Origin: Phycisphaerae bacterium
GTDB lineage: Bacteria; Planctomycetota; Phycisphaerae; SM23-33
Assembly: GCA_039683615.1 (NCBI GenBank)
Contig: JBDKRA010000021.1
Span: 1-64,000 of the forward strand
Reading direction: 5' to 3'
Length of the DNA stretch: 64,000 nt
The translations under genes and the position numbers were made by a program. Under the pieces are notes generated by a model. It was given only the letters and a program-made list of their open reading frames with translations, made no database searches and had not been told where the DNA came from. How positions within the stretch are numbered: the first letter of the stretch is position 1; every line of letters begins with the position of its first letter. Positions 1 through 60,650 of the stretch are shown here, piece by piece.

Positions 1-132
1 GCGTGGCGTGCCCTTCGGCCGCGAGTCGTGGGTAAAGCGAATGGCCGCAGAATGGGGCCTGGAAAGCACCCTCCGCCCCCGCGGCCGACCGAGAAACGCA
101 GAAAAAGGTACCTGACCCCTTTATTCCTCCCT

Positions 133-681
133 TTATTCCCCCTCCCACTGCGGCGGTTTCATTTGTCCCCTTATTCGCAGGGTGTATCTTTTGCCAATTC
201 CATTGAGTCCCACGCCCGAAATGACTGAGAAGATTTCTGCCTCCGCAACCCATCCCTTGTCCATCAACTTGGAAATCGGCGCGGCGTACCGTTCAGGCAC
301 ATAGCCAAGTTCTTTGACACGATTGAATATGCCCATCCTCGCACACACATGAACCACACGCCTGTTCTTTCGAACGAGGAGAATGGGCTGCTTCTCTCGG
401 CACTTCTTCACGAGACGCTGCTTGCCCTCGTCCATGATGCCTGCAACTAAAAGGCACGGTATCTCGTGGGGTACAAAACCGGAATCGAGCTTGGCCGGCC
501 TCCGGTGTCGCTCTTCTTCCTCTCTTGCCTTTTCTTTGCATCGAGCGTCTTCCGCTGCCAATTCTTCAGGGCTGGGGACTCTGTTCTTGCGTCTGCAAAT
601 TGGGCAGGGTTCCAATTGGCCGATTAGGCTGACGGGGGATTCCAGTTCTTCTCCACAACCTCTACAGGTGTAGATAATCAT
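133..681 (-). CDS. Hypothetical protein: N-terminal CxxC...CxxC zinc ribbon, C-terminal HIRAN-like region. GC is lower than neighbouring genes
   Basis: 182-aa ORF. N-terminus has CRGCG...CPIC. C-terminal half (LLVRKNRRVVHVC...LGYVPERYAAPISKLMDKGWVAEAEI) resembles the HIRAN pattern; domain call from memory only. GC roughly 52% against about 67% around it. Confidence 0.4.
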   Translation of the reverse strand: MIIYTCRGCGEELESPVSLIGQLEPCPICRRKNRVPSPEELAAEDARCKEKAREEEERHRRPAKLDSGFVPHEIPCLLVAGIMDEGKQRLVKKCREKQPILLVRKNRRVVHVCARMGIFNRVKELGYVPERYAAPISKLMDKGWVAEAEIFSVISGVGLNGIGKRYTLRIRGQMKPPQWEGE

Positions 682-1272
682 GGTCTTGCCCTTTCACCGG
701 AACGAAATGATGAAAGCATTGTAGAGCGAACTGGAGGCCAAGGCAAGGTCTGTCAGATTTGGCGAATTAACATCTCAAGTGTAACGCGGGGGTCTGGTGG
801 TTGAGGCACTTTGTGGGCCGATCATTCAAGGCAGTTGCCTGTGGACATTGCTGCTTCTGGGGCACGGGGAGCGGGGCAGATAGTGGTAAACGGGGTACCA
901 ACGTGCGCAGTTTGCAGAAGGACGCGATTGTTTGCGAAAACTCTCCAAAGCCCCCGAAAATGCACCGCAATAGCACCGCAAAAGCACCTCATCGCTGCGC
1001 CGGCTGTTGACCCAAGCGATCCGGTCCTGCGGCATGTTGCCCGGCGGCGGCAAGGGGGGCGACGCATCTGTCTCCCGAAATTTGCTGTGGCTGTGAAAAG
1101 TACAACAAAGTGCAAGGAAGCACAATGTGGTATAGGTGATGCTGGTTTGAGGTACGCCCGCTTCGTGGATTGGCGTCCTCCATGCCTTCGACATGCGCAC
1201 CTGAAGACGCCAAGCTGCAAGCGGCAGGGCTCTGTAGCTGACAGCTGAAAGCTGACAACCGATAGCTCTGTG

Positions 1273-3663
1273 CTATCCGTTGGTCACCGGCGGTGGGGCG
1301 GGGGACGGTTCCTCGCATACAGGCTGTTCCGAGCCGGCGATCTTCTGGCCCGGCAGGGCGGGGTAGGCGATGCGGCTGTGGTAGATGCCGCAGATGCTCT
1401 TGATGAGCGAGGCCTCGACGCGGTGCACTTCCTGGAGGGTCATTTCGCAGTCGTCGAGCTGCCCGTCCATCAGGCGCCGCGAGACCATGGTGTGCACCTG
1501 GTCCTCGATCTGTCCGGGCGTGGGGTTGGCCAGCGCCCGCACGGACGATTCGGCCGCATCGGCCAGCATGAGGATTCCCGCTTCTTTCGAGGCGGGCCTG
1601 GGTCCGCCGTAGCGGAACTCCTGCTCCTCGGGGGGGCGGTCGCCATTACTTTGGCGAGTGGCCTCGTGGTAGAAGTACTGCACCAGCGTCGTTCCGTGGT
1701 GCGTGGCGATGAACTGGTGCAGGACCTGCGGCAGGCCGTACTGGTGGGCCATCTCCAGCCCGTCCTTGACGTGGGCAATGATGACCAGCATGCTCATCGT
1801 CGGCGAGAGCCCCTCGTGGTTGGAGTCGCCGCCGGTGTTCTCGCTGAAATAGTGGGGTTTGTTGACCTTGCCGACGTCGTGATAGTACGCCCCCACCCGC
1901 GCCATCAACCCGCGGGCCCCGATGGCCTCGGCGGCCGATTCGCAGATAGCGCCCAGTTGCAGCGAGTGGTTGTAGGTGCCCGGGGCCTCCATCGCCAGAC
2001 GCTTGAGCAGGGGCTTGGAGGCGTCGCACCATTCCAGCAGCGTCATGCTGGTGGCCACGTCGAACATCCGCTCGATCAGCGGCAGGACGCCCTGGATGAG
2101 GAACCCCGCCAGCAGGGCGAAGCCCGCCGTCCAGGCGGCGTTGAGGGCGATGAACCGAAGCGGCACGTCGGCGGCAATGCCCAGCGCGGTCGTCGCCAGC
2201 AGCGCCACCAATGCCGCGACGGCGGAGACCTCGATGAGCTTGCTGCGCCGCCGCACCTCGTTGAGAAAGACGATGCTGCCGGTCATTCCCGCCAGCAGGA
2301 CCATCAGCAGATCGATGTCGCCGCGCAACTGCAGGACGGTCATCATCGCCAGGACGGTTCCCATGGCGATGGAGAAGCGGTGGTTGTAGGCGATGGTCAG
2401 GACGGTGGTGGTCATGATGACCGGCAGCACGACGGCGTGCGGGTTCCATCCCAGCCCCTGGACCATGATCTTGCTGACGGCCAGCATGCCCAGCATCACC
2501 ACCGTGACGCCCAGGCCCTGCCAGAGCGAGGTGATGACTTGCCTCTGGTACCGCCAGACGTAGCGGCAGAGCACGGCCATCAGCAGCAGCAGGATGCCCG
2601 CGCGGGCCGTGGCCCGGCGCCAGTGCGCCCAGGGGTCCTGCACGCTTTCCTGCTGGAGAAAGGCCTCGTGCTCGCGGGCCAGCAGCAGCAGGTCGTCCTG
2701 TGTCAGGGCCTTGGGGGCCGGGTCGCCGTCGCGGCGGCTGGCGCGTACCAGCACCTGCCCGGCGACGTACTTTTCGCTGGGCGGTTCGGCCTTGAGGCGC
2801 GTGACGCGCTCGTCGATGTCCTTGAGGCTGGCGCCGGTGTCCTTGAAGTACAGCGGCGGACTGCTGCCGACGAGCATCTTCATCAGATAGGTCCGGATGT
2901 CGGTGCGGATGGGCGCGTCGAAGACCAGGGCCAGGTGATCGGTCTCGTCGCCAACTTCGACCGAGCGGTCGGCCCGCACGAGGCTCTGGAGGTCCTTGGA
3001 CTCTCGCCCGCCGGGATACGACAGCCACACGTCGGTCACGGTACGTTTCATCTGCTCGGCGATTTCGGCGCTGTTGATGATGGCCGAGCTGCGCAGGCGG
3101 CCCTTGAGCTGGTCCACTTCGCTCTTGAACTTCTGCCGGCCCGCGGGCGTCAGGTACGGCGACCACGACGCCAGGCTCCGCCCGCCGTCCATGCCGAACT
3201 TCTTGAGCAGGGCCAGCGCCTGGGCCTGCCCCGTCGTCGGGACCATTCCCGACGCCGGCGCCGAGGCCGGCGGGGCGGGCATCAGCGAGGCAACCTCCAC
3301 CGCGGCAGGCAAGGCGGTCAGGTCCTCGATGATGTCCCTGGCCAGGCGCTCGTTGAAGGCGAACGTCGCCAGGGTGGACTGGTTGACGTTGCTGATGTAT
3401 TCCCGCAGCAGGTGCTCGGGCTGGGTCTGGAAGGCCACGCGGGAATGAATGTCCCCCGGAACGTATTGCCCGACCATGTACGGCAGCGGGTCGAGCGGGC
3501 GGCTGTCCAGCAGCAGCACCCCGCAGAAAAACACCACCGCCAGCAGCAGCCCGCGCGGACCGCCACCGTCGCGAAAGTGCAGCCAGGGATTGACCACGAT
3601 GGCGGCGGTGCGCCGGCGGATGTCCAGGCGGCGAGACCTCAACTTCTTCTTAAACGGCCACAT
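1273..3663 (-). CDS. pgpH: 7TM receptor with intracellular HD/HDIG metal-dependent phosphohydrolase (PgpH-like, possible c-di-AMP phosphodiesterase)
   Basis: 796 aa. Signal/TM at N-terminus, large extracellular region, seven hydrophobic helices, then an HD domain (HSLQLGAICE...YYHDVGKVNKPHYFSEN...IIAHVKDGLEMAHQYGLP). Sits directly downstream of phoH, as in the Bacillus yqfE-yqfF arrangement. Confidence 0.75.
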   Translation of the reverse strand: MWPFKKKLRSRRLDIRRRTAAIVVNPWLHFRDGGGPRGLLLAVVFFCGVLLLDSRPLDPLPYMVGQYVPGDIHSRVAFQTQPEHLLREYISNVNQSTLATFAFNERLARDIIEDLTALPAAVEVASLMPAPPASAPASGMVPTTGQAQALALLKKFGMDGGRSLASWSPYLTPAGRQKFKSEVDQLKGRLRSSAIINSAEIAEQMKRTVTDVWLSYPGGRESKDLQSLVRADRSVEVGDETDHLALVFDAPIRTDIRTYLMKMLVGSSPPLYFKDTGASLKDIDERVTRLKAEPPSEKYVAGQVLVRASRRDGDPAPKALTQDDLLLLAREHEAFLQQESVQDPWAHWRRATARAGILLLLMAVLCRYVWRYQRQVITSLWQGLGVTVVMLGMLAVSKIMVQGLGWNPHAVVLPVIMTTTVLTIAYNHRFSIAMGTVLAMMTVLQLRGDIDLLMVLLAGMTGSIVFLNEVRRRSKLIEVSAVAALVALLATTALGIAADVPLRFIALNAAWTAGFALLAGFLIQGVLPLIERMFDVATSMTLLEWCDASKPLLKRLAMEAPGTYNHSLQLGAICESAAEAIGARGLMARVGAYYHDVGKVNKPHYFSENTGGDSNHEGLSPTMSMLVIIAHVKDGLEMAHQYGLPQVLHQFIATHHGTTLVQYFYHEATRQSNGDRPPEEQEFRYGGPRPASKEAGILMLADAAESSVRALANPTPGQIEDQVHTMVSRRLMDGQLDDCEMTLQEVHRVEASLIKSICGIYHSRIAYPALPGQKIAGSEQPVCEEPSPAPPPVTNG

Positions 3664-7228: not shown

Positions 7229-8674
7229 ATGCCGGACGTGAACGCCATTGCCGCCAAGCTCGCCCAACACGGTCAATCGCACCTGCTTCGGTTTTACGAT
7301 GAGCTTCCGCCGGCGCGTCAGGCGGCCTTGCTGAACCAGATCGAACAGATCGACCTGGACGAACTCGGCCGCCTGGTCGCGCAGTACGTCCTGGCCGCTC
7401 CCGCCGCGGCCATCGAGGGAGAGATCGAGCCCGCCCCGGTGGTGTCTGCGCGGACGGGCGGTGACAGAATCGCCGCCGAGTTGTCAGCCGCACGGTTGCG
7501 CGGGCAGGAGCTGATCGCGGCGGGGAAGGTCGCGGCCTTTGTCGTCGCCGGCGGGCAAGGCACGCGGCTGGGCTTCGACGGGCCCAAGGGTTGCTTCCAG
7601 GCCACGCCGGTGGCGCACAAGCCGCTGTTCCAGGTCTTCGCCGAGCAGATTCTGGCCGCCTCGCGGCGCAGCGGCAAGGCCATCCCCTGGTACATCATGA
7701 CCTCGCCGCTCAACGACGCGGCCACGCAGGCGTTCTTCCGCCAGCAGAACTATTTCGGCCTTGATGGCGCCGATGTGTTCTTTCTGGTTCAGGGCACGAT
7801 GCCGGCTATCAGCCTGGGCTGCCCCGGCGGTCCGGCGGCGGGCAAGCTGCTGCTGGAGCAGCGCGACGCGCTGGCGACCAGCCCCAACGGCCACGGCGGG
7901 GCGATGACGGCCCTGCGGCAAAGCGGGGCGCTGGACGACATGGCGCGGCGCGGGATCGAGTTGATCAGTTATTTCCAGGTGGACAATCCGCTGGTGCGCG
8001 TGATCGACCCGCTGCTGCTGGGCCTGCACCACCTGCGCGGCGCCGAGGCCAGTGCCAAGAGCCTGCCCAAGCGCGATCCGATGGAGAAGGTGGGCAACTT
8101 CTGCCTCGTCGACGGCAAGGTCAGCGTGATCGAGTATTCCGACATGCCCGACGAACTGGCCCGCGCCACCATGCCCGACGGGCGCCTGCTCTACGGGGCC
8201 GGCAGCATCGCCATCCACGCCTTCTCGCGCACGTTCGTCGAGCGGCTGACCGCCGGCGGGCGAACGATGCTGCCCTTCCACCGCGCCGACAAGAAGGTGC
8301 CTTTCCTGGACGCCGCCGGCCGCCGCGTCGAGCCCGAGCGCCCCAACGCCGTCAAGCTGGAGATGTTCATCTTCGACGCCCTGCCCCTGGCGCGCCAGAC
8401 GGTGATTCTCGAGACCGACCGTAGCGAAGAGTTCAGCCCCATCAAGAACGCTACCGGTCTGGACTCGCCGGCCACCAGCCTGCACGATCAGGTGCGGCGT
8501 GCGGCCGCCTGGCTCGATGCCGCCGGCGTGAGCGTCCCGCGCGACGCCGACGGGCAGGTCGCCGCGGCGATTGAGATCTCGCCGCTGTACGCCGACAGCC
8601 CCGAGGCCCTGGCCGGTCGCGTCGACCCCAAGCTGGCGATCGCGCCGGGGCAAAGCCTGTACCTCGCCCCGTAG
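7229..8674 (+). CDS. UDP-sugar / UDP-N-acetylglucosamine pyrophosphorylase (UDPGP family, eukaryotic-type UAP1-like)
   Basis: 481 aa. Nucleotide-binding loop AFVVAGGQGTRLGFDGPKG, PWYIMTS motif, and a GH..A..G.. region typical of UTP-sugar-1-phosphate uridylyltransferases. Confidence 0.7.
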   Translation: MPDVNAIAAKLAQHGQSHLLRFYDELPPARQAALLNQIEQIDLDELGRLVAQYVLAAPAAAIEGEIEPAPVVSARTGGDRIAAELSAARLRGQELIAAGKVAAFVVAGGQGTRLGFDGPKGCFQATPVAHKPLFQVFAEQILAASRRSGKAIPWYIMTSPLNDAATQAFFRQQNYFGLDGADVFFLVQGTMPAISLGCPGGPAAGKLLLEQRDALATSPNGHGGAMTALRQSGALDDMARRGIELISYFQVDNPLVRVIDPLLLGLHHLRGAEASAKSLPKRDPMEKVGNFCLVDGKVSVIEYSDMPDELARATMPDGRLLYGAGSIAIHAFSRTFVERLTAGGRTMLPFHRADKKVPFLDAAGRRVEPERPNAVKLEMFIFDALPLARQTVILETDRSEEFSPIKNATGLDSPATSLHDQVRRAAAWLDAAGVSVPRDADGQVAAAIEISPLYADSPEALAGRVDPKLAIAPGQSLYLAP

Positions 8675-8692: not shown

Positions 8693-9550
8693 ATGACCCT
8701 GCCGCAAATCATCGCGTTCATCAACCCGGCCAAACCGGGCGTCAAGGAAAAGGTTGATGCCCTGCGCCCCTGGCTCAAGCAGCGCGTCGAGATCGTCGCC
8801 GAACTCAACTCCGGCGACGCGGTGCCGGACGATCTGCCCCAGGCCGGTCTGTGCGTGATTTTCGGCGGCGACGGCACGCTGCTGGCCGCGGCCCGCGCCC
8901 TGGCGCCGCGCGGTCTGCCGCTGCTGGGCGTGAACTTCGGCAAGCTGGGATTCCTCGCCGAGTTCAGCGTCGAGGATCTCCGCACGCATCTGGATGCGAT
9001 ACTGGCCGGCGAGGTGGTCGTCTCGCAGCGCATGATGCTCGACGTGAGTGTGTACGGAACGTGCCAGGACGGCCAATCGCCCGGCTTTACCTCGCTGGCG
9101 ACGAACGACGTAGCCGTATCGAGCGGATACCCGTTCCGCATGATCGAACTGACCGTCACGCAAGGCGCCGTGCATGTGGTGCGATACTACGGCGACGGCC
9201 TGGTCATCTCGACGCCCACCGGCTCGACGGGCTACAACATGTCCGCCGGCGGGCCGATCCTCGAGCCGACCATCGACGCCATCGCCATCACGCCGGTAGC
9301 CCCGCACACGCTGTCGATGCGACCGATCGTCGTGGCCAGCACGCAGCCCATCTGCATCACGGCGACGGCTGTAAATCCGGGAACGACCGTCAGCGTCGAT
9401 GGGCAGATCAACAGCCCGCTGTGCACCGGCAGCCGCGTGGAGATCCGCCGCAGCAACGTGCCGGCCCGGATCATCACGCACCCGCGGCGGACGTTCTTCA
9501 GCACGCTGACCGACAAGCTCGACTGGGGGAGCGACCCCCACACCCCGTGA
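8693..9550 (+). CDS. nadK: NAD(+) kinase
   Basis: 285 aa. GGDGTLL motif and NFGKLGFL...PTGSTGYNMSAGGPI, the canonical NadK/PpnK signatures. Confidence 0.85.
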   Translation: MTLPQIIAFINPAKPGVKEKVDALRPWLKQRVEIVAELNSGDAVPDDLPQAGLCVIFGGDGTLLAAARALAPRGLPLLGVNFGKLGFLAEFSVEDLRTHLDAILAGEVVVSQRMMLDVSVYGTCQDGQSPGFTSLATNDVAVSSGYPFRMIELTVTQGAVHVVRYYGDGLVISTPTGSTGYNMSAGGPILEPTIDAIAITPVAPHTLSMRPIVVASTQPICITATAVNPGTTVSVDGQINSPLCTGSRVEIRRSNVPARIITHPRRTFFSTLTDKLDWGSDPHTP

Positions 9551-9728: not shown

Positions 9729-10895
9729 ATGAAGACCATTGGCATCGGCCTGATCGGCTGTGGCGAACGAATACGAACTCTCATGGGCGCTTTGCTCACC
9801 GGCCGCGACGGCCTGGAAATCACCGCTATCTGCGACCCCTCCGACAAAGCGGTCGGCCGCGCGCGGCAGACCTTCGCCAAGAACGCCCGCGTCTATGCCG
9901 ACTATCACGACCTGGTTGCCGACGCAGCGGTCGACTGGGTGCTGGTGGGCTCGTGGAACTGCTTTCACGCCCAGCACGTGACCGCAGCCTTCCACGCGCA
10001 CAAGCACGTCTTCTGCGAGAAGCCCCTGGCCACGACGCTCGATGACTGCCTGGCGATGCGCGACGCGTGGCTGGCCGCTGAGAAGACCTTCGTGATCGGC
10101 TACACGCTGCGCTACTCGCCGCTGTACCGCAAGATTCGCCAGCTCATCCACGGCGGGGCCATCGGCGACCTGATCAGCCTGGAGTTCAACGAGACGCTGC
10201 CCTTCGGACACGGCGGGTGGATCCACGCCGACTGGCGCCGCCACAGCCGCAACGCCGGAACGCACCTGCTGGAAAAATGCTCGCACGACGTGGACCTGGT
10301 CAACTGGTACGTCGGGGCCCTGGCGTCGCGCGTGGCGTCATTCGGCGGGTGCGACTACTTCGTGCCCAAGAACGCCTGGCACGTGCAGCGGATCGGCCCC
10401 GCGCCCGACGGCAAGCAGCCCTACGGCGACTGGTGGGAAGTCATGGGCTACGCCAAGCCGCCGGCCGACTGCTTCGGCACCGACAAGGACATCGTCGACA
10501 ACCAGGTCGCGATCATCGAGTACGCCAACCGCGTCCGGGCGACGTTCCACACCAACCTGCACTCGGGCCTGCCCGAGCGGCGGATGTACATCTGCGGCAC
10601 CGAAGGCGCCATTCGCGCCGACTCGACAGCCGGGACGCTGCAGCTCGGCCGCATCGCCTGGGGCGCGCCGGTCGAGAGCATCCCCTTTAACAACGCCGGC
10701 GAGCATGCCGGCGGCGACGCGATCCTGGCTGCCGAACTGGCCGCCACCATGCTCGAAGGCGCCCCGCCGGTAGTCTCGATGGAAGAAGCTCTCAAGGCCG
10801 CCGTCACGTGCCTGGCCGTAGACAAAGCCTTAACCAGCGGCACTGTAGTAGACGTGGCCGAGAGCTGGAAGCGCTTCGGGATGATCGCCCGGTAA
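9729..10895 (+). CDS. Gfo/Idh/MocA family NAD(P)-dependent oxidoreductase
   Basis: 388 aa. N-terminal Rossmann motif IGIGLIGCGERI; EKPLATTLDDC consensus of the family. Confidence 0.75.
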   Translation: MKTIGIGLIGCGERIRTLMGALLTGRDGLEITAICDPSDKAVGRARQTFAKNARVYADYHDLVADAAVDWVLVGSWNCFHAQHVTAAFHAHKHVFCEKPLATTLDDCLAMRDAWLAAEKTFVIGYTLRYSPLYRKIRQLIHGGAIGDLISLEFNETLPFGHGGWIHADWRRHSRNAGTHLLEKCSHDVDLVNWYVGALASRVASFGGCDYFVPKNAWHVQRIGPAPDGKQPYGDWWEVMGYAKPPADCFGTDKDIVDNQVAIIEYANRVRATFHTNLHSGLPERRMYICGTEGAIRADSTAGTLQLGRIAWGAPVESIPFNNAGEHAGGDAILAAELAATMLEGAPPVVSMEEALKAAVTCLAVDKALTSGTVVDVAESWKRFGMIAR

Positions 10896-10974: not shown

Positions 10975-11002
10975 GCCACGCACAGCTCCGTTGTGCGTGT
11001 CC
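10975..11002. repeat. Small stable hairpin CACGCACA-N7-TGTGCGTG (hairpin family copy 1)
   Basis: gccacgcacagctccgttgtgcgtgtcc. Same consensus at 26962-26990 and 59578-59602. Confidence 0.6.
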
Positions 11003-11172
11003 CCGACGCGCTGCCCCAGCGCGGGGGCAAGTCGAAGATCCACCGCAGCACGCCCCGCCGCCAACTATCCGGTTGCCCCGGTTCCCGTTCTTTGTCTTTC
11101 CTCCCCATTCGTGACATTCGTGTTCTCTTGGGGCAGGGAAAACTCTTTGGCATCCCGCCGCCGTTTCGTAAA

Positions 11173-14100
11173 ATGCTCCCCATGAAGGTTGATCCCCGTT
11201 ACCTCACCAGCCAGGGCCCCCAGGTTTTCACCGGGGCGGAGATGTTGCTCAAAGGCGCCCTGGAGGCCGACGGCGGCGTACACCTGCTGGGCGGTTATCC
11301 CGGCAGCCCTGTCGCCGGATTTTTCGATTCCATGGCCCTGATCAAGGACCTGCTCAACGATAACGGTATCCGCGCCGTCATCAACCACAATGAGGCCCTG
11401 GCCGCGGCCATGCTCAACGGCACGCAGCTTCTGCCGGCCCGGGCGATCATCTGCATGAAGTCCGTCGGCGTGCACGTGGCGGCCGACGCCCTGGCGCTGG
11501 GCAACATGTCCGGCGCCAATCCCGCCGGCGGCGCTATCGTCATTTACGGCGACGACCCCTGGAGCGACTCGACGCAGGTCGCCGCCGACAGCCGCTATAT
11601 CTCCAGGCACCTGTACATCCCGACCATCGAGCCGGCGACGCACCAGGAGATCAAGGACTGGGTCAACCTGTCCTTCAAGCTCTCGGCCCGCAGCGAACTG
11701 TTCGCCGGGTTCGTGCTGACGACGAACCTGGCCGACGGCGGCGGCACCGTCGAGTGCAAGCCCAACCAGTACCCCGTTACGAACATGCTCAACCCGGTCG
11801 AGCTCGAGACCGCCCGGATCGACCTGGACAAGCGCGTCCTCCTGCCGCCCAAGACCTGGTGGCAGGAAGCCACTTTCGCCGACCGCTTCACCCGCGCGCA
11901 GGCCGCCGCCCGCGACCTCAAGCTCAACCGCCTGGACTACCCCTCCGACACGCGCAAGCCTGTGGGCTTCGTCGCGACGGGGCTGGCGTATTCGTACCTC
12001 GTTCAGTCGCTGTGGGAGATGGACCTGCTGGGCGAGTTCCCGATCCTCAAGTTCGGCCTGAGCTACCCCATCGACCCGGCCATGGTGCACCTGATGGCCG
12101 AGCAGGCCCAGCGCATCGTCGTCATCGAAGAACGCCGCGGGTTCATGGAGGAGCAGATCGGCCAGATCATCCTCCGCGACCGCCAGAGCGGACAACTGCC
12201 TGCCGACCTGGAACTCTGGGGCAAGAAGTTCCCCGCGCCGCTGCAGGGCATCCCCGACACGCGCGGGCTGCACCCCTCGATCATCACCGACCGCCTGGTA
12301 GCGCTGCTGCGAAGCCTCGGCGGCGGCAAGACGACGGTGGTTTTCCCCCCCGCCGCGGCGGAAGCCATCGACCGCGAGGCCGCCACGCTGGCCTCGACCG
12401 CCCAGGCCCAGACGCCCACGATCCCCGGGCGAACGCCGACCTTCTGCCCGGGCTGCCCTCACCGCGACTCGGCCAGCCTGTGCCTGGAGATCAAGCAGCG
12501 CTTCGCCGACAAGGCGTACATGGCCCGCAAGTACAAGCGGGGCCCGATTGACATGGTCTTCCACGGCGACATCGGCTGCTACACCATGCTGATGTTCCCG
12601 CCCAACACCGACTTGATGCACAACCTCTCGGGCATGGGCCTGGGCGGCGGAACGGGCTCGGGCGCCGACCCGTTCATCACCAACAAGCAAGCCGTGTTCA
12701 TGGGCGACTCGACGTTCTTCCACTGCGGGGCCCTGGGCATCTCGCAGGCCATCAAGCTCGGACAGGACATCACCTTCGTCATCCTCGATAATTCCACCAC
12801 CGCGATGACCGGCCACCAGACCACGCCGGGGCTGGACTTCGACGTGCTGGGCAACCCCACGGCGGTGCAGGACATCGAGGACGTGGTGCGCGGGATGGCG
12901 TCGCGCACCGACATCCTGGTGGCCCGCGTCGACCCGGAAAAGCGCGACGAATATGGCGAGCTGCTGGAGCGCACGTTCATGGCCGAGGGCGTCAAGGTCC
13001 TCATCGCCACCAAGGAATGCGGGATCACCCGCATCCGCCGCCAGCGCCGCCTGCAGCGCCAGACCCGCAAGGAGCTGGGGTACCTGCCCGCCTGGCAGCA
13101 CATGAACGTCAACACCGACGTCTGCCGCTTCTGCCTGGCGTGCGCCGAACTGACGGGCTGCCCGGGGCTGCGGCACGTGCAGACCGACTACGGCCCCAAG
13201 ATCGACACCGACATCACCGCCTGCGTCGACGACGGGGCCTGTCAGCGCATCGGGGCGTGCTGGAGCTTCGAGCGCGTGATGATCCACCGCCGCAAGGCCC
13301 CGCGCACGCGCGTGCCCGAACTGAACCTCGACGACATCCCCGAGCCCGAGAAGCGCGTCGTCGGCGACCTGTGGCGCTGCTGCCTGGCCGGCGTCGGCGG
13401 CCAGGGTGTCGGCCTGAGCACGCAGATCCTCGTGCGCGCCGCCCACAAGGAAGGCTACCCCGTCCTGTTCCTGGACAAGAAGGGCCTGGCCATCCGCAAC
13501 GGCGGCGTCACCAGCCAGATCGTCTACAACGTCACCGGCCAGCCCGTCACGGCGGTCATTCCTTTCGGCAAGGCCGACCTGCTGATCGGGGTCGACGCCC
13601 TCGAGGCGGTTCGCATGCTCGAGCCGCACGGCCGCATGCGCGCGGCGTCGAAAGACCAGACCGCCGCGGTGGTCAACACGCACAAGGTGCCCACCGTGTC
13701 GGGCCTGATGGGGCGCGAGGACTACGACGTCGAGCAGATGGAGCGCACGTTGCGTGAGTGTACGCGCGACGACGATTTCATGGCCCGCGACATCTCGCGC
13801 ATCTGCGAGGAGTACCTCGGCAGCAAGCTCTTCGCCAACATCATGATGCTCGGTTTTGCGTTCCAGAAGGGCCTGATCCCCGTCTCGATGCACTCGATGG
13901 CCTGGGCGATCAAGGACACCATCAAGACCGACATCCGCCGCAATCTCTATGCCTTTAACATGGGCCGCAAGCTCGTCGAGCAACCGGACCTCTTCCAGGG
14001 CCCGCCCGTCCGCGACGACTGGTCCAGCAAGCTGGAAGAATGTTGCCGCAACACCATCCGGCGCTATCGCGGCGGCCAGCAGCTCGCCGATGAGTTTCGC

Positions 14101-15918
14101 GCTGTCGCCGCCGCCGTGCTGACGGCCGGGGCCGACCTGGGCGAAACAATCAAGCGTGACTTTGTCATCCGCCTCTACGACACGATGCGCTGGGGCGGCA
14201 TCGAATACGCTCGCCGCTACGCCGACGCGGTGCTGACGACCTACCGCCGCGACAGCGCGGCGCGGCACTTCGCCGCCACGGCAGCGGTGGTGCACAACCT
14301 CGCCGCGGCGATGCTGGTCAAGGACGCGTTCTTTATCGCGGAACTCTCGACCAGCCCAGAGAAGTATGCCCGCGACCGCCGCAAGTACAACGTCAACCCC
14401 GCCAACGGCGACTGGATCGAGTACGTCCACCTGCTGCCGATGAAGCTCAAGCTCGGTCCCTGGCAGTGGCACTGGTGCAGCGCCATGGGCGACCGCGGCA
14501 TGCGGTGGCTGCGCGGGCTCAAGTTCCTCCGCAAGCTCCTGCCCTGGCGGCACCGCACCCGAAAGCAGTTCCTGGCGAAATACGAAGCCGCCGTCGCCGC
14601 CTTCCGCAGTGAAAGCGAAGAAGATTATCGCCGCGGCCTGGAGGCGCTGGCCGGCCGCCAGTGCATGGACTGCCTCATCCCCCGCTGCCGCGACGCCGGC
14701 TGTCCGCTCGAGGCCCCCGTGCCGGTCTGGCTCAACCTGGCGTACGAGGGCAAATGGTCGGCCGCCGCCGAGGCGCTGCACGAGGCCAACAACTTCCCCG
14801 AGTTCACCTCTCGCATCTGCCCCGCGCCCTGCCAGAGCGCCTGCAAGCAAAGCCACAGCGGCGGCCCCGTGCCGGTGCGCAGCATTGAGCGGCAAGTTAT
14901 CGATAAGGCGTTTGAAAACGGCTGGGTCAAGCCTCGCAAGCTCGCTGCGCCGACGGGCAAGAAAGTCGCCATCGTCGGCAGCGGCCCCGCCGGGCTGGCC
15001 GCGGCGCAGCAACTGGCCCGCAAGGGCCACGCGGTGACCGTCTTCGAGCGCGACGACGCGCCGGGCGGGCTTCTGCGATATGGTATTCCCGACTGGCGGC
15101 TGGACAAGGCCTTGATCGACCGCCGCGTCGATCAGTTGCGCGAGGAAGGCGTCAGCTTCCGCACGTTCGTGCAGGTCGGGCACGACCTGCCCGCCAACGC
15201 CCTGCGCGATGACTTCGACGCGATCTGCCTGGCCGCCGGCGCCGCGCGCCCGCGCGACCTGCGCGTCCCCGGGCGCGACCACACCGGTATCCACTTCGCC
15301 TGGGACTTCCTCGCCCAGCAGAACCGCCGTTCAGCCGGCGTGGCCGTCGAGTCCGCAGCGGCTATCGACGCCAAAGGCAAAGTCGTCCTGGTCATCGGCG
15401 GCGGCGAAACCGGCAGCGACTGCGCCGAGACCGCCTTGGCCCAGGGTGCCGTCGCCGTGCACCAGTTTGAAATTCTCTCCCCCGCCCAGGTGCGCCGCGA
15501 CCCGCTGCACGAAGGGCCGGCCCAGGTAACCCGCCACTGGTGCACCACCACCAAGGCCATCAACGCAAACGGCCAGAGCGGCCTGGAGATCGTCGCCAAC
15601 GAAGTGCGATGGGTTCAGTCCGCCGCCGGCCGGCAGATGGTCGACGTGGCCGGCAGCGAGTTCGTCCTGCGGGCCGACATCATCCTGCTGGCGCTGGGAT
15701 ACGAAGCAATATGCGACGGCGCCATCGTCTCGCAGCTGAACCTGGCCGTCGACCCGCGCGGGCGACTGGTGGTCAATGACTTCGCTGCCTCCGCCCCGGG
15801 CGTCTTCGTCGCCGGCGACCTGGCCAGCGGCCCGTCGCTGGTGGCCAGCGCGATAGACTCCGGCCGTCAGGCCGCCAAGACAATCGACGTCTATCTCCAG
15901 AATCTGAAGAAGAATTAG
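11173..15918 (+). CDS. Fused indolepyruvate/2-oxoacid:ferredoxin oxidoreductase (IorA+IorB-like, TPP and 4Fe-4S) with a C-terminal GltD/NfnB-like NAD(P)H-dependent FAD oxidoreductase domain
   Basis: 1581 aa from the ATG at 11173. N-terminus is IOR-family (GAEMLLKGALEA...GYPGSPVAGF, CPGCPHR TPP motif, Cys-rich CRFCLACAELTGCPG ferredoxin-like segment, gamma-like GVGGQGVGLSTQIL region). The last ~450 aa carry a Cys cluster (CMDCLIPRCRDAGCP...CPAPCQSAC) followed by KVAIVGSGPAGLAAAQQLARKGHAVTVFERDDAPGGLLRYGIPDWRL and VFVAGDLASGPSLVASAI, the glutamate synthase small-subunit fold. Confidence 0.7.
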   Translation: MLPMKVDPRYLTSQGPQVFTGAEMLLKGALEADGGVHLLGGYPGSPVAGFFDSMALIKDLLNDNGIRAVINHNEALAAAMLNGTQLLPARAIICMKSVGVHVAADALALGNMSGANPAGGAIVIYGDDPWSDSTQVAADSRYISRHLYIPTIEPATHQEIKDWVNLSFKLSARSELFAGFVLTTNLADGGGTVECKPNQYPVTNMLNPVELETARIDLDKRVLLPPKTWWQEATFADRFTRAQAAARDLKLNRLDYPSDTRKPVGFVATGLAYSYLVQSLWEMDLLGEFPILKFGLSYPIDPAMVHLMAEQAQRIVVIEERRGFMEEQIGQIILRDRQSGQLPADLELWGKKFPAPLQGIPDTRGLHPSIITDRLVALLRSLGGGKTTVVFPPAAAEAIDREAATLASTAQAQTPTIPGRTPTFCPGCPHRDSASLCLEIKQRFADKAYMARKYKRGPIDMVFHGDIGCYTMLMFPPNTDLMHNLSGMGLGGGTGSGADPFITNKQAVFMGDSTFFHCGALGISQAIKLGQDITFVILDNSTTAMTGHQTTPGLDFDVLGNPTAVQDIEDVVRGMASRTDILVARVDPEKRDEYGELLERTFMAEGVKVLIATKECGITRIRRQRRLQRQTRKELGYLPAWQHMNVNTDVCRFCLACAELTGCPGLRHVQTDYGPKIDTDITACVDDGACQRIGACWSFERVMIHRRKAPRTRVPELNLDDIPEPEKRVVGDLWRCCLAGVGGQGVGLSTQILVRAAHKEGYPVLFLDKKGLAIRNGGVTSQIVYNVTGQPVTAVIPFGKADLLIGVDALEAVRMLEPHGRMRAASKDQTAAVVNTHKVPTVSGLMGREDYDVEQMERTLRECTRDDDFMARDISRICEEYLGSKLFANIMMLGFAFQKGLIPVSMHSMAWAIKDTIKTDIRRNLYAFNMGRKLVEQPDLFQGPPVRDDWSSKLEECCRNTIRRYRGGQQLADEFRAVAAAVLTAGADLGETIKRDFVIRLYDTMRWGGIEYARRYADAVLTTYRRDSAARHFAATAAVVHNLAAAMLVKDAFFIAELSTSPEKYARDRRKYNVNPANGDWIEYVHLLPMKLKLGPWQWHWCSAMGDRGMRWLRGLKFLRKLLPWRHRTRKQFLAKYEAAVAAFRSESEEDYRRGLEALAGRQCMDCLIPRCRDAGCPLEAPVPVWLNLAYEGKWSAAAEALHEANNFPEFTSRICPAPCQSACKQSHSGGPVPVRSIERQVIDKAFENGWVKPRKLAAPTGKKVAIVGSGPAGLAAAQQLARKGHAVTVFERDDAPGGLLRYGIPDWRLDKALIDRRVDQLREEGVSFRTFVQVGHDLPANALRDDFDAICLAAGAARPRDLRVPGRDHTGIHFAWDFLAQQNRRSAGVAVESAAAIDAKGKVVLVIGGGETGSDCAETALAQGAVAVHQFEILSPAQVRRDPLHEGPAQVTRHWCTTTKAINANGQSGLEIVANEVRWVQSAAGRQMVDVAGSEFVLRADIILLALGYEAICDGAIVSQLNLAVDPRGRLVVNDFAASAPGVFVAGDLASGPSLVASAIDSGRQAAKTIDVYLQNLKKN

Positions 15919-16001: not shown

Positions 16002-16676
16002 ATGAAGACCGTCAGCATCGCCGCACTGATCCTGGTCCTGTTGGGATTGGCCGCCACGATCGGCCTGTTCGCCTTTGAAGAGGGGCTCAAGCATGCCGGG
16101 TGTAATCTCGATGTCGCCGCCCTGGGCGTGTTGGTCGTGTGCCTGGTTGCGTGCATCATGGGATTTGTCTCGCTGCGTGAACCCGCCGGCAAGGTCGCTG
16201 CTATTCTGGGCGCGCTGCTGGTGGGTTTCTTTGCGTATCAATTCCTCAGAACCGATGTCTCGCCACAAGTGTCGAAAGCCCCGCCATTGCGTGCGCCCGC
16301 ACGGGTACAACCTGTTGCCCTTGAGGAAATGACCCCGGTCTCGCGCGACGAGTCGCCGCGCAATCAGGCCCCGCCCCGCCGCCAGGTAGTGGTCGTGATG
16401 CCCAAATCGCCGCCGGGAGAAGCTCGTTTTGAAGGCTTCAACGACCTGCGCGTCATCAGCACAGGACCGGTCGGTGGGCCTGTCGACAATCAGAACTACC
16501 AGCTCTACGTCGGCGGGTACGTCGGGCCGTTCATCGGTCCCGGCGGCTGCCAATGGTCGGGGCGGCACGCCTGGCCAGGCTCCCGTGTCGGCGGCGCGTT
16601 TTACCTTCGCTATGGCACGCCGCCGCAGGACGACTCTGGCGAAAACGTCACGGTCTACGGCGCCGGCGGGGAGTGA
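16002..16676 (+). CDS. Hypothetical membrane protein (3 predicted TM helices, Pro/Gly-rich C-terminal region)
   Basis: 224-aa ORF with hydrophobic N-terminal helices. Preferred over the overlapping minus-strand ORF 15936-16568 because it runs co-directionally with the downstream nth. Confidence 0.4.
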   Translation: MKTVSIAALILVLLGLAATIGLFAFEEGLKHAGCNLDVAALGVLVVCLVACIMGFVSLREPAGKVAAILGALLVGFFAYQFLRTDVSPQVSKAPPLRAPARVQPVALEEMTPVSRDESPRNQAPPRRQVVVVMPKSPPGEARFEGFNDLRVISTGPVGGPVDNQNYQLYVGGYVGPFIGPGGCQWSGRHAWPGSRVGGAFYLRYGTPPQDDSGENVTVYGAGGE

Positions 16677-16684
16677 CGCACGCC

Positions 16685-17350
16685 ATGAAGAAAGAATCCC
16701 CCGAGCACCTTCGCAAGCGCGCCGGCAAGATCATCGGCCTGCTCAAGAAGCAGTACCCTGACGCCGCCACGCGACTGTTCCATCACTCCCCGATGGAGCT
16801 GCTGGTGGCCACGATCCTGTCCGCCCAGTGCACCGACGATCGCGTCAACATCGTCACCGATACGCTTTTCAAGAAGTACAAGACGCCGCAGGACTACGCC
16901 AACGTGCCCCAGGACGTGCTCGAGGGCCAGGTCCGCTCGACGGGCTTCTTCCGCAACAAGGCCAAGAACATCCGCCTGGCCGCGGCGAAGATCATCAGCG
17001 ACTTCGGCGGCAAGGTCCCGGCGACGATGGCTGAGCTGCTGACGCTGCCGGGCGTTGCCCGCAAAACCGCCAACTGCGTGCTGGGCAACGCGTACAAGAT
17101 CGCCGAAGGCATCACCGTCGACACGCACGTGGCGCGTCTGAGCATCCGCCTGGGATTCACCGACAAAAAGAAACCCGACGCCGTCGGCATCGAACAGGAC
17201 CTCATGGAGATCGTCCCCAAAGACGATTGGATCCTCGTCTCGCACCTGCTGATCTACCACGGCCGCGCCACCTGCACCGCCCGCAAGCCGGATTGCGCGG
17301 GGTGTATCCTCAACACGCTGTGCCCATCGGCATTTCGCGTAGACGCGTAA
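16685..17350 (+). CDS. nth: Endonuclease III (DNA glycosylase / AP lyase)
   Basis: Helix-hairpin-helix region LPGVARKTANCVL, catalytic-Lys region, C-terminal 4Fe-4S ligands CTARKPDCAGCILNTLC; internal ATG at 16685 gives 221 aa. Confidence 0.85.
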   Translation: MKKESPEHLRKRAGKIIGLLKKQYPDAATRLFHHSPMELLVATILSAQCTDDRVNIVTDTLFKKYKTPQDYANVPQDVLEGQVRSTGFFRNKAKNIRLAAAKIISDFGGKVPATMAELLTLPGVARKTANCVLGNAYKIAEGITVDTHVARLSIRLGFTDKKKPDAVGIEQDLMEIVPKDDWILVSHLLIYHGRATCTARKPDCAGCILNTLCPSAFRVDA

Positions 17351-34061: not shown

Positions 34062-34640
34062 TCAGTTCTGCTTGCCTTCGATGACGCACAGCAGGATTCC
34101 CGCGGCGATGGCCAAGCCCGGCTCAATGCGGCCTTTCGCTTCGGGGGCGAAGTCCAGAGCGATCTTCATCACGAAGGGATTGAAGTTCTGCTTGAAGGAC
34201 ATCACGTGGTCGTCGCCGATGGTGCCGCGATATTTCTGCGGCAGGATCAGCGCCGCGAACTCGACGAACCGGCGAACGAGCGCCAAGGCCGCGCTGTCCT
34301 CGACGATCTTGCCGACCTCGTTGTCCTGGGAATCGAGAATCTGCCACTCGTCGCGCACGATGCTCTTGAGCCCGCGGCGGCGCAGGGCGCCGAGCTTACG
34401 TCCGGTCGCCGACTCGACCACGTCATAGGCGCTGGAGAAGTCGATGATCTTCCGCGCCTTGATCTGCATCAGCTCGTCGGCCCGCTGCTCGTCGCGATAG
34501 ACGCGGATGTCTTCCTTGAGCTTGAAGGCCTTCATGTGCACGAAAGCCGCCAGAATGCCCTGCTCGTCGGTCACGTGTACCTTGGCGCCGGCGAACGTCA
34601 GCACCTTCCTGCGAAGCTGATACCCGCTGTACTCGAACAT
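34062..34640 (-). CDS. Hypothetical protein (possible tubby/LURP-one-like fold)
   Basis: 192-aa ORF with coherent codon usage on the minus strand; no motif I can name with confidence. Confidence 0.35.
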   Translation of the reverse strand: MFEYSGYQLRRKVLTFAGAKVHVTDEQGILAAFVHMKAFKLKEDIRVYRDEQRADELMQIKARKIIDFSSAYDVVESATGRKLGALRRRGLKSIVRDEWQILDSQDNEVGKIVEDSAALALVRRFVEFAALILPQKYRGTIGDDHVMSFKQNFNPFVMKIALDFAPEAKGRIEPGLAIAAGILLCVIEGKQN

Positions 34641-34757
34641 GCCATGGCTCCTTTATACCCGGTGTCATGGCCCTCTGCCGCTTGCGGCTTGGCAGTTGTC
34701 TGGTAAGCAGAAGCTGCCAAGCCACAAGCGGCAAGTGGCACCATGCCACCCAATCTT

Positions 34758-36104: not shown

Positions 36105-36110
36105 AATCGA

Positions 36111-36140
36111 TTTCCAATTTCCAATTGGCAATTTCCAATT
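36111..36140. promoter_or_regulatory. AATTGGAAATTGCCAATTGGAAATTGGAAA motif in the leuC 5' leader, 7 nt upstream of the start codon
   Basis: Reverse complement of 36105-36146 reads ttcaattggaaattgccaattggaaattggaaatcgattATGtccATG. The 26-nt core is identical to 31339-31364 upstream of the fucosidase gene. Confidence 0.5.
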
Positions 36141-36362
36141 GAACAATCGCTATGCTAAGGCCTGGAGGCGCGGATATCAACGCGCGCGAGGGCAATTAAA
36201 GCTCAAGCGTCTCCAAAAGACGTGTCACAGCGCCATCACCCATGGCCGTACCGACGACGGCGGGCGATTTCCTGCGGAAAAAATCGCGCGTTATTGAAGG
36301 CCGCTGCAGCCCTTGCCGACGAAGTTAATGAAGCGAAGCTGGAACCGCCGGGAGTATTTATC

Positions 36363-39440: not shown

Positions 39441-39511
39441 TGGGGATTGGTGTAACGGTAGCACGACTGACTCTGGATCAGTTAGTCAAGGTTCGAATCC
39501 TTGATCCCCAG
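39441..39511 (+). tRNA. tRNA-Gln (anticodon CUG)
   Basis: Manual fold: acceptor TGGGGAT/ATCCCCA (U1:A72 as in bacterial tRNA-Gln), D-arm GTGT-AACGGTA-GCAC, anticodon stem ACTGA/TCAGT with loop CTCTGGA (U33, anticodon CTG), T-arm CAAGG-TTCGAAT-CCTTG, discriminator G. CCA not encoded. Confidence 0.8.
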
Positions 39512-43038: not shown

Positions 43039-43042
43039 CACC

Positions 43043-57395: not shown

Positions 57396-57399
57396 TGCG

Positions 57400-60640: not shown

Positions 60641-60650
60641 GGAAGCTCGC

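Follow-up and report, generated by a model that had tools for sequence, protein, structure and literature searches.

A predicted 2-oxoacid:NAD(P)+ oxidoreductase formed by fusion of an indolepyruvate-type oxidoreductase to a GltD-type flavoprotein in Phycisphaerae

A long open reading frame in a 64-kb stretch of DNA from a Phycisphaerae bacterium (the whole stretch analysed, hereafter the window) raises the question of whether an oxidoreductase of the indolepyruvate type (IOR) and a flavoprotein of the type of the glutamate synthase small subunit (GltD) are truly encoded as one polypeptide and, if so, what such a protein would do. The initial annotation, made from the sequence alone, had proposed both the fusion and a self-contained 2-oxoacid:NAD(P)+ oxidoreductase activity. 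As described below, Pfam and NCBIfam domains together with the predicted fold bear out an IOR-type 2-oxoacid:ferredoxin oxidoreductase (OFOR) and a GltD-type module in a single polypeptide, and those points of the annotation that were open to checking all held. The positions of the gene, its domains and its neighbors are listed in Table 1.

The gene lies within a single open reading frame on the forward strand (10993..15918) that offers ATG codons at 11173 and 11182. The second is the more likely start, since a database protein identical to the product (P0001, 100% identity) is 1578 amino acids long and the homolog consensus, drawn from 28-46 homologs, opens with MKVDPRF; the start at 11173 adopted earlier is for these reasons not favored. 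Residues are numbered here from 11182, except that the Pfam and NCBIfam boundaries run from 11173 and are converted by subtracting 3. ATG 11173 falls within the -10 box of a sigma70-like promoter match, a class of match observed twice against 0.5 expected in shuffled sequence. As this -10 box ends 8 nt upstream of ATG 11182, the mRNA of the fusion gene may be leaderless. An Rfam scan found no regulatory RNA family near the gene.

Table 1. Positions of the fusion gene, its parts and its neighbors in the window.
Feature	Position	Strand	Evidence or remark
NAD kinase gene	8693..9550	+	conserved upstream neighbor in the fused clade
GFO/IDH/MocA oxidoreductase gene	9729-10895		between NAD kinase and fusion gene in the window
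Sigma70-like promoter match TTGGCA-16-TAAAAT	11147..11174	+	10/12; consensus match only
Whole fusion gene	11182..15918	+	1578 codons plus stop; likeliest start ATG 11182 (MKVDPRY...)
OFOR domains I and II (aa 1-410): TPP pyrimidine-binding with GGYPGSP, and transketolase-C-like	11182..12411	+	TIGR03336 IOR_alpha, AF2, Foldseek
TPP diphosphate-binding domain, OFOR domain VI (aa 411-635)	12412..13086	+	Pfam TPP_enzyme_C, E 1.4e-12
Ferredoxin-like domain, OFOR domain V (aa 640-700)	13099..13281	+	7 invariant Cys
OFOR gamma / CoA-binding domain, domain III (aa 739-929), GxGGxG G737-G744	13396..13968	+	
DUF6537 helical domain (aa 997-1156)	14170..14649	+	Pfam; typical of single-chain IOR-family proteins
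Fusion junction (aa ~1147-1160)	14620..14661	+	junction alignment; profile match to GltD
GltD N-terminal Fe-S domain (aa 1158-1247)	14653..14922	+	Pfam Fer4_20, E 1e-16
FAD and NAD(P) region	14959..15864	+	FAD site VGSGPAGLAAA; NAD(P) site GGGETGSDC...VHQFEIL, E1430 invariant
Endonuclease III-like gene	16553..17350	+	conserved downstream neighbor; no evident functional link

The N-terminal ~1157 residues form a complete IOR-family OFOR with all of its domains present in Pfam and NCBIfam. In 11173-based numbering, Pfam recognizes TPP_enzyme_C (466-610), POR (742-932) and DUF6537 (1000-1159), and the NCBIfam models IOR_alpha (TIGR03336) and PRK13030, the latter describing the single-chain IOR family, span 19-693 (E 1e-85) and 38-1149 (E 8e-128). 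Scores lie under the curated cutoffs of the IOR models (IOR_alpha, 288 vs 650.9; IOR_beta, 78 vs 205.8; PRK13030, 428 vs 816), and the unfused relatives from the PVC group likewise fall under the PRK13030 cutoff (454-474 vs 816). A phmmer search of the PDB gave no match for the OFOR part, and the best 60 of 283 matches in a profile search of the PDB were all C-terminal, with none on the OFOR part. Support for the OFOR fold therefore comes from the predicted structure, in which residues 1-410 have an AF2 pLDDT mostly above 85 and the OFOR part resembles OFOR alpha subunits by Foldseek (8ys5_A, TMt 0.69; 5c4i, TMt 0.55-0.61). The gamma (CoA-binding) domain is present, and the overall predicted fold is that of an OFOR.

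Cofactor ligands in this part are invariant, as judged over 28-120 homologs plus unfused relatives. The TPP motif GDS-X25-DN, with G508, D509 and N537 invariant, matches the OFOR signature GDG-X(24-27)-N(N), and the four cysteines of the TPP-proximal [4Fe-4S] cluster (C422, C425, C466 and C613) show 100% conservation among relatives, fused as well as unfused. The ferredoxin-like domain has seven cysteines at atypical spacing (C648-x2-C651-x2-C654-x5-C660-P ... C681-x5-C687-x5-C693), compared with eight in the usual two CxxCxxCxxxCP motifs that hold two [4Fe-4S] clusters, and may differ from these in the number and type of its clusters. This seven-cysteine pattern is common to the whole PVC single-chain subfamily, including the unfused relatives. 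Only five positions in the entire OFOR part discriminate between the clades; as none of them lies in the ferredoxin domain, a fusion-specific adaptation of that domain was rejected.

By sequence and predicted fold, the C-terminal ~420-430 residues are a complete GltD-type Fe-S flavoprotein. Pfam identifies Fer4_20 (1161-1250) and Pyr_redox_2 (1263-1564, both 11173-based), and the adrenodoxin-reductase-like FAD and NAD(P)H domains carry both dinucleotide motifs. Ligands for two [4Fe-4S] clusters (C1161, C1164, C1169 and C1174, with C1213, C1217 and C1221) are 100% conserved. The best NCBIfam model for the module is TIGR01317 (glutamate synthase small subunit), which covers 1160-1576 (11173-based) at 459.6 bits, above its cutoff of 447.7, and so accounts for the designation "glutamate synthase small subunit" used by NCBI; the TIGR01316 cutoff was not passed. 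Matches to small subunits of glutamate synthase (GltS) reach E 1e-99, compared with 4e-61 for NfnB. When aligned by structure, the B. subtilis GltS small chain is 38-40% identical to the module over the full length of the latter, and identity to betaproteobacterial GltS beta is 48-49%. The two-part layout first described therefore stands, with part sizes of ~1180 and ~450 residues revised to ~1157 and ~420-430. The motifs picked out at the outset (CPGCPHR, GSGPAGLAAA and the Cys clusters) all occur in the protein and do not vary among its homologs. Family-wide invariance extends to the TPP motif, to the cysteines of the OFOR (4+7) and GltD (4+3) parts, and to the motifs that bind FAD (GxGxxG) and NAD(P) (GGGxxG); selection thus acts on both halves as redox enzymes.

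At the junction, homology to unfused IOR proteins stops near residue 1157 and the match to the GltD profile starts near residue 1147, leaving no linker. Predicted multi-domain models of residues 640-1578 (pTM 0.77) and 1-1160 (pTM 0.83) are confident and likewise contain no low-confidence linker, and pLDDT is 77-91 through the junction. The last 40-110 residues of the DUF6537 region, which unfused relatives keep, are exchanged here for the GltD module, and the first 30-40 residues of free GltD are absent, with DUF6537 packing in their place. The coding frame has no stop codon between ~14500 and ~14800, and re-examination of the junction, recommended in the initial annotation, disclosed no missed stop or frameshift. 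There is virtually no chance that a lost stop, a frameshift or a chimeric assembly produced an artificial read-through at ~14600, as many studies and independent assemblies have yielded the identical architecture, in at least 120 independent clusters of proteins and in the genomes of ~66 species, the junction is conserved with few gaps, and GC3 is uniform (0.87-0.96) over the entire reading frame.

These clusters (defined at 90% identity) agree in length as well as in architecture, and the carriers, counted as GTDB species genomes, are all metagenome-assembled genomes (MAGs) of uncultured Planctomycetota/Phycisphaerae, a lineage of sediment, groundwater and peat. Fused proteins account for one full-length representative among 1.84 billion representatives of 50%-identity clusters. 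They are monophyletic (24 of 24 in a neighbor-joining tree), and their sequences show the fusion to have had one evolutionary origin. Among the 150 best representatives no other OFOR-GltD fusion was found, and the long proteins with the closest GltD modules were all GltB-GltD glutamate synthases.

The nearest unfused relatives, from Phycisphaeraceae and Verrucomicrobiia, are 48-50% identical and end at the junction region. They belong to the single-chain IOR-family OFORs with DUF6537 (PRK13030/PRK13029), exemplified by a 1238-residue "DUF6537 domain-containing protein" of Poriferisphaera sp. WC338, a group that is 46-50% identical over residues 1-1157. These proteins share with the fusion protein the domain order I-II-VI-V-III-DUF6537, the 4+7 cysteines and the TPP motif. 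They differ in ending 40-110 residues past the junction with a GYREVRYPK-type tail and no flavoprotein module, and presumably use free ferredoxin. To our knowledge these single-chain proteins are biochemically uncharacterized, and a literature search for "DUF6537" returned no match. We also considered whether orthologs are split into two genes. In the 15 closest unfused loci no GltD gene adjoins the IOR gene; at one of them (L072) a GltD-like gene of the NfnB/TIGR01316 type lies 4 kb away on the opposite strand with unrelated genes between. A split-gene ancestor was rejected on these grounds. Because the unfused relatives stop at the junction and lack an adjacent GltD gene, the fusion represents a single domain accretion rather than a merged operon.

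As for function, the sequence makes it reasonably likely that the protein is a single-polypeptide, ferredoxin-independent, CoA-acylating 2-oxoacid:NAD(P)+ oxidoreductase, whose electron path, direction and coenzyme we infer as follows. The IOR-family core would, in keeping with its family membership, decarboxylate a 2-oxoacid on TPP and transfer the acyl group to CoA. The two electrons would exit singly through the TPP-proximal [4Fe-4S] cluster and then the ferredoxin-like domain, along what we assume to be an intramolecular or inter-subunit wire, and would gather on the FAD of the GltD module for hydride transfer to NAD(P)+. The GltD module would then run opposite to its direction in glutamate synthase. 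With the 2-oxoacid/acyl-CoA+CO2 couples near -500 mV and NAD(P)+ at -320 mV, electrons would run downhill along the proposed path. Transfer to NAD(P)+ would forgo the ~180 mV that ferredoxin-linked enzymes conserve, and a more elaborate coupling is therefore conceivable.

The acceptor is probably NAD+. The Arg-Arg pair of the NADPH-dependent A. brasilense GltD (LYRRDR) aligns here with Q-F, followed by the invariant E1430; this acidic residue, of the kind found in NADH-type sites, makes NAD+ likelier than NADP+. The FE(L/I)LP motif also occurs in eukaryote-type fused GltS sequences, a class that uses NADH (PMC8097209). The coenzyme call is drawn from one motif, and both the Arg pair and the Glu are missing from the closest solved relative, the small chain of B. 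subtilis GltS.

Gene neighborhoods were compared for a redox partner. Within ~6 kb of the fusion gene, the 68 fused loci show no recurring ferredoxin, GltB or other redox partner, nor a protein of the NfnA/PyrK type, which would carry [2Fe-2S] and a second FAD. When neighbors in 83 loci were clustered, the recurring genes were limited to those for NAD kinase, endonuclease III, UDPGP and PhoH and one that is prepilin-like, with no recurring ferredoxin, NfnA, GltB, aminotransferase or acyl-CoA synthetase. NAD kinase lies within 600 bp of the fusion gene in 23 of the 68 fused loci and is specific to the fused clade; this adjacency may be inherited gene order and was not counted as functional evidence.

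These loci bear on three other readings of the protein. In the first, the GltD-type FAD would act as that of NfnB does, making a bifurcating, confurcating or branched enzyme that couples NAD(P)(H) with 2-oxoacid/acyl-CoA and with a third partner, either ferredoxin or a different carrier. NfnB/SudA and the GltD-like domains of NfnABC/StnABC have the same fold and the same cofactor set, but there the FAD bifurcates and depends on a second branch, supplied by NfnA or by the NfnBC/StnBC subunits, and neither an NfnA/PyrK-like protein nor any other such partner was seen near the gene in the 68 loci. NfnB-type sequences also resemble the module less closely than true GltD does, as the E values and the outcomes for TIGR01317 and TIGR01316 indicate, and we regard this reading as unlikely.

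In the second reading the direction is reversed, and an NAD(P)H-fed 2-oxoacid synthase would carboxylate acyl-CoA reductively, its GltD module feeding the OFOR as it otherwise feeds GltB. OFORs are reversible in principle. The characterized GltD-type systems listed in PMC8097209, moreover, all move NAD(P)H electrons uphill into low-potential clusters. Electrons would nevertheless have to climb ~180 mV with no extra driving force, and the window and related loci contain no CO2-fixation context, which makes this direction very unlikely.

The third reading links the protein to glutamate synthase: the C-terminal module would dock on GltB, and 2-oxoacid oxidation or NAD(P)H would feed glutamate synthesis. 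Passage of the TIGR01317 cutoff and the identities to GltS chains given above speak for it. However, no gltB gene is present in the 64-kb window, and no GltB-sized family recurs beside the gene in the 68 fused loci. The residues missing from the start of the module, replaced by DUF6537 packing, also argue against docking, and a tethered enzyme of ~1150 residues would need to fit the GltS assembly. GltS beta is a free subunit of ~470-490 residues encoded and assembled with GltB, whereas the module is the C-terminus of a 1578-residue protein; unlike the GltD chains of B. subtilis (7mfm_I) and A. brasilense (6s6s_G), it is not a free subunit and has no GltB in view. GltD of known synthases takes electrons from NADPH, while the fused module is predicted to pass them toward NAD(P)+. 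We consider a link to glutamate synthase more improbable still than the reversed direction.

It is doubtful that the protein is either a new bifurcating or confurcating 2-oxoacid enzyme, in which the FAD links NAD(P)(H), a further carrier and an OFOR chain of very low potential, or a module docked on GltB. The former would open the possibility of NAD(P)H-assisted reductive carboxylation or of a split between ferredoxin and NAD(P)H; in the latter, 2-oxoacid oxidation would directly power glutamate synthesis.

For the favored 2-oxoacid:NAD(P)+ oxidoreductase, two known systems offer a comparison. Eukaryotic pyruvate:NADP+ oxidoreductase (PNO) reportedly combines a PFOR-type core with a cytochrome-P450-reductase-type FMN/FAD module that has no Fe-S clusters. 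Like the fusion protein, PNO of Euglena gracilis and Cryptosporidium parvum is an OFOR fused at its C-terminus to a flavoprotein; in this joining of PFOR with an NADPH flavoprotein, the pyridine nucleotide NADP+ takes the place of ferredoxin as acceptor (PMC6856725). The protein described here differs in its IOR-type core, in a GltD-type module with two extra [4Fe-4S] clusters and in its bacterial hosts, and Pfam and NCBIfam detected no flavodoxin or FNR-type domain in it, so it does not qualify as a PNO. In the 2-oxoglutarate:NADP+ oxidoreductase (KGOR) of Azoarcus evansii, the flavoprotein subunit is classified in the GltD/NfnB superfamily (PMC10134865), and by that classification an OFOR with such a flavoprotein likewise reduces NADP+ directly. 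Only the principle is shared: KGOR is multi-subunit, with a KorAB-type core and a separate flavoprotein in the NsoC-like rather than the true-GltD clade, whereas the fusion is a single chain with an IOR-type core. Full-text literature searches found no description of an OFOR-GltD fusion, in agreement with the initial annotation; its implication of novelty must be tempered in that PNO and KGOR make the principle less unprecedented.

Public databases name the fused proteins "glutamate synthase small subunit", "FAD-dependent oxidoreductase" or "indolepyruvate ferredoxin oxidoreductase", so that nitrogen assimilation or steps that depend on ferredoxin are likely to be assigned wrongly in metabolic reconstructions of these MAGs. 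A 2021 review (PMC8097209) gives GltS, DPD, Nfn and AegA/YgfT as the enzymes that GltD-type modules serve, and the predicted activity, if true, would add another partner to this short list. A compact single-gene 2-oxoacid:NAD+ oxidoreductase may also be of interest for pathway engineering. If the prediction is correct, this Phycisphaerae lineage would oxidize a 2-oxoacid to acyl-CoA with NAD(P)+ by means of one lipoate-independent polypeptide. Such an enzyme would be a bacterial, Fe-S-wired counterpart to eukaryotic PNO and a third solution beside the multi-enzyme 2-oxoacid dehydrogenase complexes and the ferredoxin-dependent OFORs.

The fusion gene, placed at 11173-15918 in the initial annotation, proved to be a single open reading frame on the forward strand, translated without an internal stop, but its start was probably misplaced. 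ATG codons at 11173 and 11182 are both candidates, and we favor 11182 as the probable start because P0001, a database protein of identical sequence, has 1578 aa, the consensus of 28-46 homologs begins MKVDPRF, and the -10 box of a sigma70-like promoter match overlaps the ATG at 11173 and ends 8 nt before 11182. This promoter-like -35/-10 pair so close to the probable start suggests a leaderless or near-leaderless transcript. At the 14550-14650 junction, where a missed stop or frameshift had been considered, the coding frame continued without a stop at around 14500-14800, and GC3 was uniform (0.87-0.96) across all 600-nt slices of the gene.

The fusion is real. In a word-indexed search, proteins of 1523-1632 aa with the same Pfam set and 59-72% identity to the query filled at least 120 clusters at the 90% identity level; as these were drawn from NCBI, ENA, JGI and Logan assemblies, a read-through or sequencing artefact at about 14600 is ruled out. 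When one genome per GTDB species was scanned, 320 relatives were returned, the best 80 of which included about 60 full-length fused genes and 6 clipped by contig ends, all in MAGs with the labels Planctomycetota, Phycisphaerae or Planctomycetales. Searched exhaustively, 1.84 billion cluster representatives at 50% identity yielded one full-length fused representative (P0085) and fragments, among them P0121, which stands for a 54%-identical sub-lineage with a full-length member (P0303) of 1567 aa. The remaining matches covered either the OFOR alone, up to query position 757-759 (aa about 1157), or the GltD module alone, from 757-760 onward. The 24 fused proteins sampled for a neighbor-joining tree of the OFOR part all fell in one clade, with unfused Verrucomicrobiia-type proteins as its sister.

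Pfam, NCBIfam, solved-chain matches and Foldseek agreed with the initial description of an OFOR followed by a GltD-like C-terminus, which was correct in substance. The best solved-structure matches of the C-terminal module were the GltS small chains of B. subtilis (7mfm_I, E 1e-99) and A. brasilense (6s6s_G, E 1e-73), followed by NfnB (4ylf_B, E 4e-61). The OFOR part scored below all curated IOR cutoffs in NCBIfam, as did its unfused PVC relatives, and by these profiles its resemblance to IOR is at the family level only. AlphaFold2 models built with a 46-sequence family alignment were confident for both aa 1-1160 (pLDDT 84.0, pTM 0.83) and aa 640-1578 (pLDDT 86.2, pTM 0.77), and the protein is confidently predicted to be compact. 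For the N-terminal model, Foldseek ranked PFORs (E about 1e-12) and OFOR alpha subunits (OorA, TMt 0.69) highest; because the domain order differs (here I-II-VI-V-III), global TM against PFOR was low.

Features of the fusion gene, its neighbors and its product. Residues count from ATG 11182, NCBIfam coordinates from ATG 11173; conservation of each cofactor site across 120 family members is complete or at least 99%.
Feature	Position	Strand	Remark
UDPGP-family gene	7229-8674		further upstream
NAD kinase gene	8693-9550		further upstream
GFO/IDH/MocA oxidoreductase gene	9729-10895		upstream flank
Fusion gene ORF	10993..15918	+
Sigma70-like promoter match	11147-11174	+	TTGGCA-16-TAAAAT; consensus match only
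Endonuclease III-like gene	16553-17350		downstream flank
TPP_enzyme_C	aa 463-607		Pfam
POR (gamma)	aa 739-929		Pfam
DUF6537	aa 997-1156		Pfam
Fer4_20	aa 1158-1247		Pfam
Pyr_redox_2	aa 1260-1561		Pfam
IOR_alpha	19-693		NCBIfam, E 1e-85
PRK13030 (single-chain "IOR family protein")	38-1149		NCBIfam, E 8e-128, 428 bits, below 816 cutoff
TIGR01317 (glutamate synthase small subunit)	1160-1576		NCBIfam, 459.6 bits, above 447.7 cutoff
TPP motif			cofactor site, GDS-X25-DN
TPP-proximal [4Fe-4S] ligands	C422, C425, C466, C613		cofactor site
Ferredoxin-like domain Cys	C648, C651, C654, C660, C681, C687, C693		cofactor site
Gamma-domain motif			cofactor site, GxGGxG
GltD-module Cys	C1161, C1164, C1169, C1174 + C1213, C1217, C1221		cofactor site
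FAD motif			cofactor site, GSGPAG
NAD(P) motif			cofactor site, GGGxTGxDC

The seven Cys of the GltD module follow the GltD/DPD pattern for a pair of [4Fe-4S] clusters; in that pattern the fourth ligand of one cluster is not a Cys (PMC8097209). In the OFOR part, unfused relatives share the 4+7 Cys pattern, and just five positions separate the fused clade from the unfused one, none within the ferredoxin domain. One of the five, Cys434 (codon 12481-12483), lies near the TPP-proximal ligands and is present in 99% of fused proteins, with Leu in 15/15 unfused ones. Across the whole PVC single-chain OFOR subfamily the ferredoxin-like domain (13099-13281) has unusually spaced Cys, 7 rather than 8; where unfused relatives have a Pro following the last of these, fused proteins have W, S or D.

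The closest unfused relatives (48-50% identical) belong to Phycisphaeraceae, including a Phycisphaera mikurensis MAG and the cultured Poriferisphaera sp. WC338, and to Verrucomicrobiia. They could be aligned to aa about 1157, beyond which their remaining 40-110 residues form a "...VExVxGYREVRYPKM..." tail; in fused proteins this tail gives way to CMxCxNPRCxExGCPL, the motif of the first GltD cluster. The profile match to full-length GltD chains (7mfm, B. subtilis; 6s6s, A. brasilense) begins at aa 1147-1149, corresponding to GltD residue 33-35, and the first 30-40 residues of free GltD and the DUF6537 tail have therefore both been lost. The junction has no linker, and its predicted pLDDT is 77-91 throughout. 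When split orthologs were sought, a GltD gene adjoined the OFOR gene in 0/15 unfused loci; a GltD-like gene at one locus (L072) was rejected as a split partner, being NfnB-type (TIGR01316, 573 bits), 4 kb off and on the other strand with unrelated genes between. The nearest free GltDs came from Betaproteobacteria (Propionivibrio, Hydrogenophilus; 48-49% identity) and Omnitrophica and were ordinary beta subunits of glutamate synthase; the long proteins bearing the closest modules were eukaryote-type GltB-GltD synthases. From the junction, the absence of split genes and the nearest free GltDs, the fusion seems to have arisen once, when a PVC-type single-chain OFOR captured a true gltD-type module.

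A single polypeptide contains both OFOR core and GltD-type module in full, with all redox ligands conserved and no partner gene recurring beside it. The OFOR core would carry out TPP-dependent decarboxylation and CoA acylation, and two sequential one-electron transfers would run from the proximal cluster through the ferredoxin-like domain to the two GltD clusters. FAD would then gather the electrons and pass a hydride to NAD(P)+, the GltD module serving as the needed one-electron/two-electron converter. The proposed flow would be downhill, from 2-oxoacid/acyl-CoA+CO2 couples at around -500 mV to NAD(P)+ at -320 mV. The activity originally predicted, a self-contained 2-oxoacid:NAD(P)+ oxidoreductase, is supported as far as computation can go. 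The most novel alternative, a bifurcating or branched enzyme or one coupled to GltB, seems quite improbable.

An acidic residue ending the second Rossmann strand generally favors NAD(H). In the alignment, Q1428-F1429 stand in place of Arg-Arg in the NADPH-dependent GltD of A. brasilense (LYRRDR) and are followed by an invariant E1430 (VHQ(F/L)E(I)LP). The FE(L/I)LP motif also occurs in many bacterial TIGR01317-type GltDs and in eukaryote-type fused GltS sequences; the fused GltS of eukaryotes uses NADH (PMC8097209). On these grounds we consider NAD+ the likelier acceptor, with modest confidence.

Gene neighborhoods were compared at 68 distinct fused and 15 unfused loci. Neighbor clustering across these 83 loci showed recurrence only of NAD kinase, endonuclease III, UDPGP, PhoH and a prepilin-like gene. 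Beside the 68 fused genes there was no recurring ferredoxin, NfnA/PyrK-like protein, GltB, aminotransferase or acyl-CoA synthetase, and the fusion gene therefore looks monocistronic and self-sufficient. NAD kinase lay upstream within 600 bp in 23/68 fused loci and within 6 kb in 33/68, and endonuclease III downstream in 37/68; both were near 0/15 unfused loci. The NAD kinase adjacency is suggestive of pyridine-nucleotide metabolism, but may simply be inherited gene order. In the window a GFO/IDH/MocA gene is inserted between NAD kinase and the fusion gene, and is absent there from the other loci; their sole other match to it, at L060, was weak (28% identity), about 5 kb downstream and on the opposite strand.

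Elsewhere in the window, ORFs 39616-43038 (1140 aa) and 42902-50617 (2571 aa), on the forward strand directly downstream of a tRNA (39441-39511), have coding-like GC3 (0.88) and no Pfam match at E<=1e-4. A reverse-strand run at 53212-60724, encoding MoxR-type AAA ATPase, DUF58, SpoIIM-like, RDD-family and DUF4129-containing proteins, resembles a MoxR-associated cluster. At 34062-36149 (reverse strand), an aconitase-family large-subunit-like ORF (463 aa) and an adjoining 197-aa ORF, unrelated to the fusion gene, may form an isopropylmalate or homoaconitate isomerase.

The pyruvate:NADP+ oxidoreductase (PNO) of Euglena and Cryptosporidium carries a P450-reductase-type module, whereas the flavoprotein here is GltD-type. 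Together with the 2-oxoglutarate:NADP+ oxidoreductase of Azoarcus evansii, whose flavoprotein subunit falls within the GltD/NfnB/DsrL/NsoC superfamily (PMC10134865), PNO (PMC6856725) already establishes that an OFOR can be wired directly to a pyridine-nucleotide flavoprotein, and the fusion is not a categorically new system. What is new is that an IOR-type single-chain OFOR is combined with a true-GltD-type module, that the two are joined covalently without a linker, and that the setting is bacterial (Planctomycetota). One review lists GltD-like modules in GltS, DPD, NfnB/SudA and AegA/YgfT (PMC8097209), and another, on Nfn fusions, names no OFOR fusion (PMC6405883). Full-text literature searches turned up no mention of an IOR-GltD fusion or of DUF6537, consistent with the initial remark that the architecture is not known to have been characterized. 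Public names for the 1570-1620-aa fusions (P0001, P0049, P0115 and others) are "glutamate synthase small subunit" or "FAD-dependent oxidoreductase", although only their C-terminal third exceeds the TIGR01317 cutoff, and the mis-annotation is systematic. The fusion is relevant to work on OFORs, Fe-S flavoenzymes and PVC metabolism, and helps to correct annotation.
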